From a virus (lineage: Duplodnaviria > Heunggongvirae > Uroviricota > Caudoviricetes): DNA of 7,647 nucleotides. Shown here piece after piece: positions 3,239 through 7,304 of the stretch (within the stretch, counting starts at the first letter, position 1; the number at the start of each line of letters is the position of its first letter). Under the pieces are notes generated by a model. That model saw only the letters and a list, made by a program, of their open reading frames with translations. It ran no database searches and was not told the DNA's origin. The position numbers and the translations under genes were made by a program. Location of the stretch: the IMG/VR virus record IMGVR_UViG_2690316243_000010. One strand, 5' to 3'.

Positions 3239-3664
3239 TCAATGTACTGCCACAGCATTTCCTGCCGGGCCACCACGGTTCATCTGATTGAAACCGGCGA
3301 TTGCCACTGCGACAAAATCATCAGCGTCTCTCACCAGTCGTTCATGCGTCTCCACCAGTTCCCGAAAATAAGCTGAACTGTGGCTGCGCATTCGAGCCAC
3401 CAGCGGAGGTGGCATTGCCCTTTCGATCGCAGGTAACAACGCCTGAATTTTTTCAACAGCGTCAGGGGTGTCTTTATCCAGCCAACGGAAAATCTTTTGG
3501 GTGTTGAGATAAAGTGTGTTGTGCTTGCTGTCGTTATGCAGAACCGGAAACGTCATTCCCAGTTCGAAATAAACCCTGGTTATTTCAGCTGCCGGAACTT
3601 TTTCACCGTCCGGATGCGCCCAGGCTTTCATCGCCATGCGGATGTGTTCATGCTTGATTTTCAT
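3239..3664 (-). CDS. ydaT: YdaT-family protein (reported functional equivalent of CII in a CP-933P-type cryptic prophage), 141 aa
   Basis: N-terminus MKIKHEHI matches my recollection of YdaT proteins. Start ATG at 3664..3662 overlaps the stop of the upstream Cro-like gene (ATGA overlap), so it is translationally coupled. Position between the cro-like gene and the replication genes mirrors lambda cII. Confidence 0.8.
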   Translation of the reverse strand: MKIKHEHIRMAMKAWAHPDGEKVPAAEITRVYFELGMTFPVLHNDSKHNTLYLNTQKIFRWLDKDTPDAVEKIQALLPAIERAMPPPLVARMRSHSSAYFRELVETHERLVRDADDFVAVAIAGFNQMNRGGPAGNAVAVH

Positions 3665-3924
3665 GAATCAACCCCCGCCGATGGTTGTGTGTTAGCCTGA
3701 AACTCAGCAGGCAAGCCGTCAGTTGGGTTGGGGTAGGTTTTACTGTCAATCTCATGTGGGGTCACCACCCATCCCGTTGCTTCACACCAACGTAATATTT
3801 TTTCTCCTGTAAGTTTTGCACGCCCCGTTATAACGTGGCTGACCATCCCTTGGGATGCGCCAACAATCTCAGCAAATGAACTCTGGGTTATATGAAAATG
3901 ATGCAAATATTCTCCAAGATTCAT
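3661..3924 (-). CDS. ydaS: Cro-like HTH DNA-binding protein (YdaS family), about 87 aa
   Basis: Small minus-strand ORF diverging from the repressor gene. ATG at 3924..3922 is preferred over the TTG at 3951 used in the ORF track, with AGGGCGG upstream. Helix-turn-helix-like segment SSFAEIVGASQGMVSHVITGRAKL. First gene of an operon followed by ydaT and the replication genes. Confidence 0.8.
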   Translation of the reverse strand: MNLGEYLHHFHITQSSFAEIVGASQGMVSHVITGRAKLTGEKILRWCEATGWVVTPHEIDSKTYPNPTDGLPAEFQANTQPSAGVDS

Positions 3925-3960
3925 AATCCGCCCTATGTGATGTGTTACCAATGCATAATT

Positions 3961-4000
3961 AATAGCACTGTTATTTTTAAAAGTAAATAGTGATGCTATT
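3961..4000. promoter_or_regulatory. OR-like operator pair in the divergent promoter region: two 15-bp sites of the AATAGC-N3-GCTATT family
   Basis: AATAGCACTGTTATT at 3961-3975 and AATAGTGATGCTATT at 3986-4000, centres 25 bp apart, in the 111-bp gap between divergent ydaS-like and repressor starts. Same motif family as the 5098-5138 pair. Confidence 0.7.
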
Positions 4001-4035
4001 TCAAAGTGATTAGCAATCTTATTAGAATTGGATGT

Positions 4036-4536
4036 ATGAAAAGAAAATCATTGTCAGACACCGACCTCAACGCCGCCAGAAGACTGAAAGAAATCTGGAT
4101 GGCAAAGAAATCTCAGTTGGGATTGACTCAGGAACGTGCGGCGGAAATTATGGGGTTTTCAACACAAGGGGCGGTAAGTCACTACCTAAATGGTCAAACC
4201 CCACTAAACCTTGAGGCTGTTCTAAAGTTTGCTGGCTTACTGAAAGTTCCCCCTGAGTCAATCAGGCCAGACATGGTAGATTTGCTGCAAATTGCAAGGA
4301 TGTATTGTCGAGAACCACAGCAAGATAACATAGTCGCATTACCAGCAGACACAGAACAAACAGAGGATGAACTACCGTTTGCCGTAGAGCCGATGGAACG
4401 AGATTTAATCCATACGTTCAGAGCTTTTCCGAAAGAAGATCAAGAACACATGCTTCAGGAGATGAAAGATAAAAAAGAATCAATGGATCGTACGGTTGCG
4501 CGGTGGTTAGCTGCACAAAAAGGCCGTCGCGCCTAA
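4036..4536 (+). CDS. paaR2: CI-like prophage repressor lacking an S24 peptidase domain (PaaR2/RacR-type HTH regulator), about 166 aa
   Basis: ATG at 4036 (MKRKSL...) rather than the ORF-track start at 4006. The N-terminal HTH (LGLTQERAAEIMGFSTQGAVSHYLNGQTPLNLEAVLKFAGLLKVPPESI) is lambda CI/XRE-like. The roughly 100-aa C-terminal region is acidic with no Ala-Gly cleavage site or GDSM-type serine motif that I can see. Diverges from the cro-like gene and is followed by the TA pair. Symbol assigned by resemblance from memory. Confidence 0.75.
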   Translation: MKRKSLSDTDLNAARRLKEIWMAKKSQLGLTQERAAEIMGFSTQGAVSHYLNGQTPLNLEAVLKFAGLLKVPPESIRPDMVDLLQIARMYCREPQQDNIVALPADTEQTEDELPFAVEPMERDLIHTFRAFPKEDQEHMLQEMKDKKESMDRTVARWLAAQKGRRA

Positions 4537-4555
4537 ATCAGAGGAGATATGTAAA

Positions 4556-4750
4556 ATGAGTACAGTCCTTTCCCCAATGGTTTCAGAATTTGAGACAGTT
4601 GAGCAAGAAAATAGTTACAACGAATGGCTGCGGGCCAAAGTAGCAGCAAGCCTCGCGGATCCCCGCCCGGCGATTCCGCATGATGAGGTAATGGCGGAAA
4701 TGGAACAAATTATTGCCCAAATTGCTGCTGCAACTCACAGAGGTGAATAA
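4556..4750 (+). CDS. paaA2: Antitoxin of the ParE-family toxin (PaaA2-like), 64 aa
   Basis: Small acidic protein. GAGGAG Shine-Dalgarno at 4541-4546. Stop TAA overlaps the toxin start (TAATG at 4748-4752). Sits immediately upstream of a RelE/ParE-fold toxin gene. Confidence 0.8.
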   Translation: MSTVLSPMVSEFETVEQENSYNEWLRAKVAASLADPRPAIPHDEVMAEMEQIIAQIAAATHRGE

Positions 4751-5040
4751 TGTTACCCGTTTTATGGCTACCATCTGCTCGTGATGATTTGCGCCAGATC
4801 GTAGCCTACATAGCTAAAGAAAATCCCGCGGCAGCACGCAGAATGAAAATTCGAATTGAAACATCCGTTTTGCCGCTCACAGAGCATCCTTACCTGTATC
4901 CTCCAAGCGAGCGAGTTCTTGGTCTTCGTGAAATTGTAACTCATCCTAACTACATCATCCTTTACCGAGTAACAGCATCAAGCATAGAAGTAGTAAATAT
5001 TGTGCATTCTCGAAGACAGTATCCAGGCAAAAACAGTTAA
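4750..5040 (+). CDS. parE2: ParE/RelE-superfamily toxin (ParE2-like), 96 aa
   Basis: Size, 1-nt overlap with the upstream antitoxin, and sequence character (basic C-terminal region ...IVHSRRQYPGK) are typical of ParE/RelE toxins. Followed by an intrinsic terminator. Confidence 0.85.
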   Translation: MLPVLWLPSARDDLRQIVAYIAKENPAAARRMKIRIETSVLPLTEHPYLYPPSERVLGLREIVTHPNYIILYRVTASSIEVVNIVHSRRQYPGKNS

Positions 5041-5056
5041 TTATTCCCGCCGACAG

Positions 5057-5078
5057 AACCACCTTAGGGTGGTTTTTT
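5057..5078 (+). terminator. Rho-independent terminator of the repressor-TA operon
   Basis: Stem AACCACC (5057-5063), loop TTAG, stem GGTGGTT (5068-5074), followed by a T run to 5078. Begins 17 nt after the parE2-like stop. Confidence 0.8.
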
Positions 5079-5097
5079 CTTGCCCCAACAAAAAACA

Positions 5098-5138
5098 ATA
5101 GCGATGCTATTTACATCAAAAAAAATAATGATGCTATT
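5098..5138. promoter_or_regulatory. OL-like operator pair: AATAGCGATGCTATT (perfect palindromic arms) and AATAATGATGCTATT
   Basis: Sites at 5098-5112 and 5124-5138, centres 26 bp apart, immediately downstream of the terminator and upstream of the rightward small-gene operon. Same motif as the 3961-4000 pair about 1.1 kb away. Confidence 0.7.
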
Positions 5139-5319
5139 GTTTCAGGCGTCAACCCACCCCGCCCCACAGAATGCAGGGCAATACTTCGAGTTACCAGACA
5201 GTGGTCAGGGGTTAAGTAGCCAGCCCGAGGCGTAAGAACATGACGGCAGGGTTCAATCTTTAACTATGCAGCAGGTTTTTTGTTCCGCCACCCCGGCGTT
5301 AAGGGGAAATGAGGTCAGC

Positions 5320-6427: not shown

Positions 6428-6746
6428 CGGTGATGAAAGGAAAGAGAAAATGTTGAATGTAGCTATTGAAAACCAGAACGGGTGGAATTATAGTGCACCT
6501 GCACCTTATAAAACGGGTGCCGGGCGTGGAAACCCGAACGTTACTCGAGCGCATAGCCGCGCTGAAGCGGTTTTTTTATGCGTAATGCACAGCTCCATTC
6601 AAATTATGGTGGGATGTGCAGGGCAGTCGCAAGACTGGCCGGGTTCTCGAGTGACCGGTATTTCCACCCCTGTACGTCTCACCACCCTTATGGTCGTGGA
6701 AAACCTCGGTGGTGAGTTAATTAACTTATCACTCGAGGATGCCATC

Positions 6747-7304
6747 ATGGCTACTATCCCTGCCCTTTCTCACCCTGACGTAACCATCGAAAATGGTCGC
6801 GCTGTCACTACGTCTATTGCGATCGCAGAGTTCTTTGGCAAGCGTCACGACAATGTGTTACGTGCCATCGCAAATACTGAATGCTCACCTGAATTTAACG
6901 CCCTCAATTTTGAGGACGTCACCTACACTGACGCCAAAGGCGAAAAACGCCCGATGTACCAAATCACCAAAAACGGCTTCGTTTTCCTGGTGATGGGATT
7001 CACTGGCAAAAAAGCCGCTGCATTTAAAGAAGCCTACATTGCTGAGTTCGATCGCATGGAGGCCGAACTGCGCCAGAATAACACCCCACCCACTGACAAA
7101 ATAATTCCAGGCGATGGCCGCACCCTGGTTGTTCACTTCGACGAACGCGGCAACATCAGATTCACCGAAACCGTTCCTGATGGCGCACGGGTCTGTACCA
7201 TGGAGACTTTCCGGTTTTATCTGGAAGAACAGGGATGGACTCTTGTTAACCGGGGCGCAATTAAAAATATGACTGTAGAGCAATTACTCAAAATTCATTG
7301 TTGA
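6747..7304 (+). CDS. Rha-family phage regulatory protein (Phage_pRha domain), about 185 aa
   Basis: ATG at 6747 with GAGGA Shine-Dalgarno 7 nt upstream. Sequence block AIAEFFGKRHDNVLRAIAN...MYQITKNGFVFLVMGFTGKKAAAFKEAYIAEFDRME is characteristic of Rha/ORF6N-type phage regulators as I recall them. The in-frame upstream extension to 6450 has a possible Shine-Dalgarno but non-protein-like composition, so the start is uncertain. Confidence 0.8.
   Translation: MATIPALSHPDVTIENGRAVTTSIAIAEFFGKRHDNVLRAIANTECSPEFNALNFEDVTYTDAKGEKRPMYQITKNGFVFLVMGFTGKKAAAFKEAYIAEFDRMEAELRQNNTPPTDKIIPGDGRTLVVHFDERGNIRFTETVPDGARVCTMETFRFYLEEQGWTLVNRGAIKNMTVEQLLKIHC

Follow-up and report, generated by a model that had tools for sequence, protein, structure and literature searches.

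A 7,647-nucleotide stretch of Caudoviricetes DNA (IMG/VR record IMGVR_UViG_2690316243_000010), called the window here over its full length, carries two AATAGC-N3-GCTATT palindromes between the divergent start codons of a cro-like gene and a repressor gene. We consider it highly likely that these palindromes constitute the strong pair within a right operator (OR) of three sites and that this OR is paired with a two-site left operator (OL) in a lambdoid prophage immunity switch. Both sites had been singled out in an original prediction as 15-bp inverted repeats with centres 25 bp apart between the divergent starts, and reading of the sequence together with a pattern search of the window confirmed this description: their centres lie at 3968 and 3993, and each deviates from the palindrome at one position (Table 1). 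A weak third site, centred 23 bp from the OR2-like centre, has to be added to the pair originally counted, and all three are held by the 111-bp gap from the Cro-like ATG (3924, minus strand) to the repressor ATG (4036, plus strand), with centres at −68, −43 and −20 relative to the latter. A further pair with the same consensus was found 1.1 kb from OR, beyond the repressor-paaA2-parE operon, where it sits over the TTTACA and TATTGT hexamers of a predicted PL-type promoter with a spacing of 27 bp. One of its members is the perfect palindrome of which the OR sites had been called imperfect versions; the kinship stood, and the palindrome itself was located at 5097-5111, one base off the 5098-5112 given before. 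The operator unit consists of a 15-bp core, or 17 bp with its flanks (aAATAGC-AwT-GCTATTt).

Table 1 Features of the immunity region and of its neighbourhood in the window.
Feature	Position	Strand	Sequence or description	Basis
OR1-like operator	3961-3975		AATAGCACTGTTATT; nearest the cro-like gene; overlaps predicted PR −10	Sequence reading and pattern search
OR2-like operator	3986-4000		AATAGTGATGCTATT; abuts PRM −35; overlaps PR −35 by 2 bp	
Weak OR3-like site	4009-4023		ATTAGCAATCTTATT; 3 mismatches; overlaps PRM −10	
OL-type operator	5097-5111		AATAGCGATGCTATT; perfect palindrome; overlaps PL −35 by 2 bp	
OL-type operator	5124-5138		AATAATGATGCTATT; 2 mismatches; overlaps PL −10	
Repressor, 166 amino acids (aa)	4036-4536	+	Lambda-CI-like N-terminal domain, basic N-terminal arm, linker, C-terminal hairpin	Pfam HTH_3
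Cro-like helix-turn-helix (HTH) protein, 87 aa	3661-3924	−	Transcriptional repressor (PHROG 35)	Pfam HTH_3 (weak); PHROG 35, E = 8e-17
Predicted PRM-type promoter	4000-4028	+	TTCAAA (4000-4005), 17-bp spacer, TAGAAT (4023-4028)	Consensus scan, 9/12
Predicted PR-type promoter, cro-like/ydaT operon	3959-3987	−	TTTACT (3987-3982), 17-bp spacer, TATTAA (3964-3959); start near 3952	
Predicted PL-type promoter	5110-5140	+	TTTACA, spacer, TG-n-TATTGT; upstream of ydfA(DUF1391)...dicB-type operon	
Intrinsic terminator of the repressor-paaA2-parE operon	5055-5082	+	Hairpin (−15.1 kcal/mol), then U-tract	
ydaT (CII equivalent)	3239-3664	−		Pfam YdaT_toxin; PDB 8bt1, E = 3e-70; PDB 3c4r, E = 4e-79
Perfect YdaT operator	3654-3671		TTGATTTTCATGAATCAA; on the junction of cro-like stop and ydaT start	Motif search, 1 match vs 0.07 expected
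PaaA2-type antitoxin, 64 aa	4556-4750	+	75% identical to CP-933P PaaA2	Pfam PF21217
ParE-type toxin	4750-5040	+	67% identical to CP-933P ParE2	Pfam PF05016

When at most one mismatch was allowed, three sites were observed in the window compared with 0.01 expected, and none of 200 dinucleotide shuffles reached three; a Markov-1 simulation at the same stringency gave an expectation of 0.0135, and none of 2000 runs reached the observed count. With up to two mismatches, there were four sites against 0.26 expected (0/200 shuffles reached four), all of them in non-coding DNA, within the two stretches on either side of the repressor operon. An Rfam scan of the whole window returned no match in or near the operator regions.

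Loci with the N-terminal domain (NTD) of this repressor comprised E. coli L001-L006 and L012, Salmonella L008/L009, and the metagenomic L010, L018 and L019. A motif scan of related prophages, which the original prediction had put forward as a check, showed conservation of both sites, the outer arms being invariant and the centre free. Every NTD-bearing locus has a pair spaced 25-26 bp at −75/−50 from the repressor ATG, the OR1-like offset being fixed at −75 in all related loci, and OL-type sites after the operon, as a pair except in Salmonella L008/L009, where only one was found. The spacing of the OL pair was 25 bp in L001-L005 and L012 and 24-26 bp in L010, L018 and L019. Across six E. coli loci compared, whose genes are 77-87% identical to those of the window except in L001 (98.6%), the OR pair, the weak third site and the OL pair were all retained, with conserved arms and variation in the central three bases. 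Further, the OR core was 88-93% identical in relatives whose flanking genes were 77-82% identical. The OR2-like site is a perfect palindrome in several relatives, and the OR3-like site is conserved in position in every related locus, with only two mismatches in L018. Among 25 distinct strong sites from nine loci, AATA and TATT were invariant (2 bits), the GC of each arm carried 0.9-1.5 bits, and the central three bases 0.3-0.8 bits. Such a symmetric profile, with invariant arms and a nearly free centre, is the expected signature of a dimeric HTH protein. It could be argued that the palindromes are AT-rich inverted repeats that arose by chance, or ordinary promoter elements that no dedicated regulator reads, as the region is AT-rich and the right arms overlap −10- and −35-like hexamers. 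The excess of sites over expectation, the symmetric information profile, and the co-inheritance with one DNA-binding domain across genera make this extremely improbable.

The motif co-occurred with the lambda-CI-like repressor NTD and the Cro-like gene in eight further independent sequence types, whatever their cargo. For example, it was present in a Salmonella diarizonae locus with a 47% identical repressor and HigBA cargo, in a metagenomic contig with HipA_2/DUF3037 cargo, and in two loci with two-HTH repressors. On the other hand, the immunity region of CP-933P in E. coli O157:H7 (L007), which has PaaA2/ParE cargo and shares the C-terminal module of the repressor, has another NTD and another cro, and contains no motif site at all. 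In L020, which has the same C-terminal module and cargo with another NTD and cro, no site was found in the regulatory intergenic region, and one two-mismatch match lies elsewhere. These loci bear on the idea that the palindromes are autoregulatory operators bound by a PaaA2-ParE complex, as in classical type II toxin-antitoxin (TA) operons. The sites do flank the TA operon, and palindromic operators are typical of TA autoregulation. However, loci with HigBA, HipA_2/DUF3037 or no cargo still combine the motif with the repressor NTD, and the motif is missing from the regulatory regions of the PaaA2/ParE loci with another NTD (L007 and L020). PaaA2, moreover, has 64 aa with a Pfam match to the PaaA2 domain only and is reported to have no DNA-binding domain (PMC8630535), so that we give this idea hardly any credence.

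The proposal that the sites are operators of the lambda OR kind gained support from the repressor with its lambda-CI-type NTD and from the HTH Cro-like protein, in addition to the conservation of the sites and their co-occurrence with the NTD. Residues 2-81 of the repressor align with the lambda cI NTD (phmmer against PDB sequences, 1lmb, E = 3e-9); the basic N-terminal arms (MKRKS in the repressor, STKKKP in lambda CI) are aligned, and the acidic helix-2 residues E33 and E37 align with lambda E34 and D38. An AlphaFold (AF2) model of the repressor, with a mean predicted local distance difference test (pLDDT) score of 78, shows five helices in the N-terminal part, disorder in a linker over residues 94-111, and a helical hairpin formed by residues 119-165 in the C-terminal part. 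Foldseek with this model returned lambda cI NTD structures first (1rio/1lmb/3kz3; TM 0.81-0.93, ~39% identity), and the top match, 1rio, is a complex of cI NTD, sigma region 4 and DNA. No Peptidase_S24 domain was detected in the repressor by Pfam; the protein comprises 166 aa only, with a two-helix C-terminus. Its C-terminal module is 52% identical to PaaR2, the CP-933P repressor, over the last 44 aa (BLASTP, E = 5e-15) and 29% identical to DicA of Qin over 51 aa (E = 2e-6), and the hairpin also occurs in 132-aa repressors with yet another N-terminal HTH. Identification of the repressor as PaaR2 was rejected because the match is confined to the C-terminal 44 aa, and the DicA immunity type was rejected because both the NTD and the operators differ. 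The repressors of L010, L018 and L019 (P0018, P0022 and P0020) have 243-255 aa, with two tandem HTH domains before the common C-terminal hairpin; the first domain is lambda-like, and the second is the sole HTH of the 132-aa repressors.

The recognition helix of the Cro-like protein (SQGMVSHVITG) is similar to that of the repressor (TQGAVSHYLNG), and the Cro-like protein therefore very probably reads the repressor's sites. Two proteins reading one site are known from lambda, 434 and P22. The protein co-varies with the operators and the repressor NTD, and its helix GASQGMVSHVITGR is conserved. An alternative is that the sites are genuine repressor operators but that the Cro-like protein binds elsewhere or acts differently, without lambda-type competition. 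The Cro-like protein has no detectable similarity to YdaS of CP-933P or to DicC, and both identifications were rejected on that ground; for CP-933P, the exact sequences bound by PaaR2 and YdaS are not pinned down (PMC8630535). Nevertheless, in all loci the Cro-like gene and the motif are inherited together, the HTH helix of its product is identical throughout and resembles that of the repressor, and the footprints of both CP-933P regulators overlap (PMC8630535). We regard this alternative as improbable.

The operators lie close to or over predicted promoter elements. The −10 of the PRM-type promoter is overlapped by site 3 and its −35 is abutted by site 2, and this promoter was also called by the scan in L001 and L002. 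According to a listing of the repeats, the predicted PR-type promoter and its operators would have the same layout as those of the PL-type promoter. The latter was called by the scan in L001 and L002 (9/12, extended −10 TG, 17-bp spacer). Its spacer is 19 bp in the window versus 17 bp in relatives, and the two extra A's caused the window PL to be missed by the promoter scan. The terminator of the repressor operon is located directly before OL/PL, is conserved in relatives and was called by the scan in L002.

The A of the repressor ATG (A4036) is the eighth base after TAGAAT, and the seventh in more distant relatives. Every diverged relative had a −10-like hexamer at 6-7 nt before the repressor ATG, with unrelated intervening bases, and no usable Shine-Dalgarno sequence was seen before this ATG in the window or in the relatives. 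Given this short distance and the lack of a usable Shine-Dalgarno sequence, the repressor mRNA is likely to be leaderless or to have a 1-2-nt leader, as measured for paaR2 of CP-933P, whose mRNA 5′ RACE and N-terminal sequencing showed to be leaderless (PMC8630535). The suggestion of a leaderless or near-leaderless repressor mRNA is in this way upheld as a prediction. The hexamer from which it had been derived, TATTAG at 4020-4025, is present in the sequence and was not retained as the −10: TAGAAT (4023-4028) is the better candidate, as it is conserved, has A and T at positions 2 and 6, respectively, and is separated from TTCAAA by a 17-bp spacer. A start set by TATTAG would hit an out-of-frame ATG at 4032, which is not conserved in relatives. 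The GTG at 4006 was also rejected as a repressor start, because it falls within the promoter spacer and the relatives show either a stop codon in frame or no extension at this place; the NCBI Prokaryotic Genome Annotation Pipeline (PGAP) likewise starts the repressor at the ATG.

As to the identity of the binder, the order of binding, activation, looping and transcription starts, we infer the following scheme. A dimer of the 166-aa repressor would read the operator symmetrically, and the Cro-like protein would read the same sites. Repressor on OR1 and OR2 would cover the −10 and −35 of the leftward PR, which is expected to serve the cro-like, ydaT and replication genes, and repressor on the OL pair would cover the PL-type promoter of the ydfA...dicB-type operon. 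Given the lambda-like position of OR2, its occupancy could activate PRM through an acidic patch: in the light of lambda biology and 1rio, E33 and E37 of the repressor bound at −43 could contact sigma region 4 and stimulate transcription. The weak OR3 over the PRM −10 might provide negative autoregulation or be the preferred target of the Cro-like protein. PRM (TTCAAA-17-TAGAAT) would start at or within 1-2 nt of the ATG, yielding a leaderless repressor mRNA. The PaaR2/DicA-type hairpin in place of the lambda S24 domain presumably provides dimer-dimer cooperativity, possibly also OR-OL looping, and would free the switch from dependence on RecA cleavage.

The immunity region that CP-933P carries in E. 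coli O157:H7 (paaR2-paaA2-parE2 / ydaS-ydaT, OR933P, OL933P; Jurenas et al. 2021, PMC8630535), characterised experimentally and retrieved here by BLAST with published primer sequences, is organised similarly. PaaR2 and YdaS footprint across both divergent promoters, both proteins repress an OL1-3/PL933P region beyond the TA genes, PaaR2 forms an octamer without a peptidase domain, and the locus is bistable (PMC8630535). As in the window, a cro-type gene and ydaT point leftward, and the rightward repressor, paaA2 and parE genes are followed by a terminator and by operators at a PL-type promoter. A nearly identical YdaT protein with the same operator on the gene junction, a short intergenic region (97 bp there, 111 bp in the window), and a −10 hexamer immediately before the repressor ATG are also common to both. 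By contrast, the repressor NTD is unrelated in sequence to the PaaR2 NTD (PDB 7nkv/8c3k), BLASTP aligning the last 44 aa only and searches with the window protein returning neither structure, and the Cro-like protein is not similar to YdaS. The operators differ as well: GTTTAGTAA-type (GTTTAGT-type) repeats are present in CP-933P and absent from the window intergenic region, which has AATAGC-N3-GCTATT instead. DNA similarity between the two breaks at 3676-4470 (cro, OR and repressor NTD) and at ~4998-5149 (terminator and OL/PL), which, on comparison of the sequences, is the classic pattern of a swapped immunity module. Because the NTD, Cro-like protein and operators differ, the window and CP-933P are predicted to be heteroimmune.

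With lambda, the switch shares a homologous repressor NTD, in which both the basic N-terminal arm and the acidic residues of helix 2 are represented, as well as operator geometry: the OR1/OR2/OR3 centres lie at −66/−42/−19 from the cI ATG in the annotated lambda record versus −68/−43/−20 in the window. A further set of operators, predicted in the window to control PL as in lambda, lies past the genes that are co-transcribed with the repressor. The lambda repressor mRNA is leaderless. Differences include the half-site (TATCAC in lambda, AATAGC in the window), a two-helix hairpin in place of the S24 peptidase/RecA-cleavage domain of lambda CI, and the presence of a ParE TA pair where lambda has rexAB. 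Only two OL sites were found in the window, and OR and OL are 1.1 kb apart there, whereas this distance is about 2.3 kb in lambda. Qin of E. coli K-12 (DicA/DicC) has divergent repressor and cro-type genes and a downstream ydfA-ydfB-ydfC...dicB operon in common with the window. Its DicA NTD is not similar to the window repressor and DicC has no similarity to the Cro-like protein, its regulatory regions carry TGTTAG...CTAACA-type repeats rather than the AATAGC motif, and it has no TA cargo.

Cluster source names and the insertion sequence (IS) elements seen near the locus in genomes with an identical repressor make it probable that the element is a Shigella sonnei cryptic prophage. It is a common element: the whole region was present in 72 of 5426 complete E. 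coli genomes, and an assembly collection lists about 6000 blocks with the exact repressor protein. The A-run of the PL spacer (around 5117-5125) is 8 long in the window, 8-9 long in complete genomes with an identical repressor, and 6 long in E. coli RMDEC465; the longer run results in the 19-bp PL spacer and the 27-bp OL spacing of the window. In four loci with the identical repressor (L014-L017), the OR2-like site, 50 bp upstream of the ATG, reads AATAGTGATACTATT, which is a double change at mirror positions that keeps the palindrome (AATAGT...ACTATT), and L015 has an extra T between OR1 and OR2. The A-run variation and the extra T could be due to homopolymer slippage, decay or assembly error, and the regulatory region of the window copy may be drifting. 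The reading frames of the repressor, the Cro-like protein, YdaT and the TA pair are all intact in the window.

Several of these observations, among others, weigh against the scheme proposed for the window. The copy looks slightly degraded, with an arm mismatch in site 2, an OL spacing of 27 rather than the typical 25 bp, and a PL spacer of 19 bp, and the switch may therefore no longer work normally in a cryptic prophage. The PR-type promoter was recognised by eye with an 8/12 consensus match, below the scan threshold, and because of this match it is put forward as a predicted element only. The OR3-like site is weak, with its three mismatches, and its conservation could reflect promoter function alone. 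The distance from the −10 to the A of the ATG is 7 nt versus the usual 6, so a 1-2-nt leader is equally possible. In addition, the binding of the Cro-like protein to the repressor's sites, although very probable, is argued from helix similarity and co-inheritance. The sites might also be relics of operators in an active ancestor, left in a cryptic prophage with a drifting regulatory region whose switch no longer operates as described. The 8-base A-run with the altered PL and operator spacings, the arm change of site 2 in the window, the double change in L014-L017, the extra T in one genome and the nearby IS elements would all fit. However, the reading frames are intact, and thousands of assemblies retain the exact repressor; OR1, OR2 and PRM are essentially intact, and in L014-L017 the palindrome survives the double change. 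The switch of CP-933P works although that prophage is likewise cryptic (PMC8630535). On balance, we think a relic rather unlikely and prefer the three-site OR with its OL pair as the operators of an immunity switch.

The kind of switch is known, and its immunity specificity, defined by the operator, a repressor with a lambda-like NTD and a PaaR2/DicA-type C-terminal module, and a Cro-like protein of its own, was not found in the phage collection and literature searched. Megablast of 3600-5300 against 50,697 phage genomes gave flank matches only, with coverage ≤13%, and the best tblastn match of the repressor was lambda cI at 31%, this immunity type being absent from that collection. A literature search for the AATAGC/GCTATT operator motif gave no apparently related description, the papers returned being on Pf4r, a staphylococcal repressor and Borrelia Hbb. 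The window would hold a second switch of the CP-933P type, heteroimmune to the first and likewise in control of a ParE TA pair, and its operator, a simple 15-17-bp palindrome, is much cleaner than that of CP-933P, for which there are footprints without exact bound sequences. It also offers two natural experiments: lambda-type operator geometry with the S24 cooperativity/cleavage domain replaced by a 44-residue helical module, and immunity modules (cro, OR, repressor NTD and OL) swapped as units between prophages. No concept is changed by these findings, and the NTD is homologous to the best-understood repressor, lambda CI. Only tentatively, and with low confidence, we propose further that the switch is run by a natural chimera of a lambda-CI-type NTD, with its N-terminal arm and sigma-contact patch, and a PaaR2/DicA-type hairpin without protease, possibly tuned by homopolymer runs. 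If so, it would be a RecA-independent bistable switch of lambda geometry with an uncharacterised immunity specificity, gating a ParE TA pair and a dicB/kil-type operon. The homopolymer runs (T5-6 between OR1 and OR2, A6-9 in the PL spacer), which vary among near-identical prophages, could then tune or phase-vary operator phasing and PL strength instead of reflecting only decay or sequencing noise.

Leftward, the Cro-like gene and ydaT are followed by a replication initiator and a DnaC/IstB-like loader, as assigned by Pfam, PHROGs and PDB searches. The perfect YdaT operator matches the published motif TTGATT-N6-AATCAA (PMC9986795), and positions 3637-3656, which adjoin it, are identical to the published PRE933P primer. 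These two identities indicate that the CII-equivalent arm of the CP-933P circuit is also present. Rightward, the terminator and the OL-type pair are followed by a ydfA (DUF1391)-type operon with a Rha-family gene among its members. In the 284-aa open reading frame (ORF) at 6450-7304, the 5′ part gave a Pfam Ash match and the Rha domain begins only near residue 120. Rfam matches to isrK (6501-6577, plus strand, 61 bits) and C4 antisense RNA (6602-6689, plus strand, 77 bits) lie inside the 5′ part of this ORF, and its Ash-like part may be RNA genes and not protein. If that is the case, a P1 immI-like antirepressor control module would be located in the PL-type operon of an element whose repressor has no cleavage domain. 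At the left end of the window, a masked run of N (107-316) interrupts ORFs.

The ydfA leader (5146-5265) is 92-95% identical in relatives, where genes are ~80% identical, and 93% identical to CP-933P. Its predicted RNA fold (5141-5268) was no more stable than shuffled sequences (z = 0.3) and had no Rfam match, and a literature search for put-type antiterminator RNAs gave nothing. Partial matches were obtained in 3,728 E. coli genomes, the majority of them probably through this leader, as suggested by phage matches that are confined to it. In the window, paaA2 and parE are taken as cargo co-transcribed with the repressor. In relatives, the slot between the repressor gene and OL is occupied by PaaA2/ParE, HigB/HigA, HipA_2 with DUF3037, two small unknown ORFs, or nothing, and it looks like a moron insertion point co-transcribed with the repressor.

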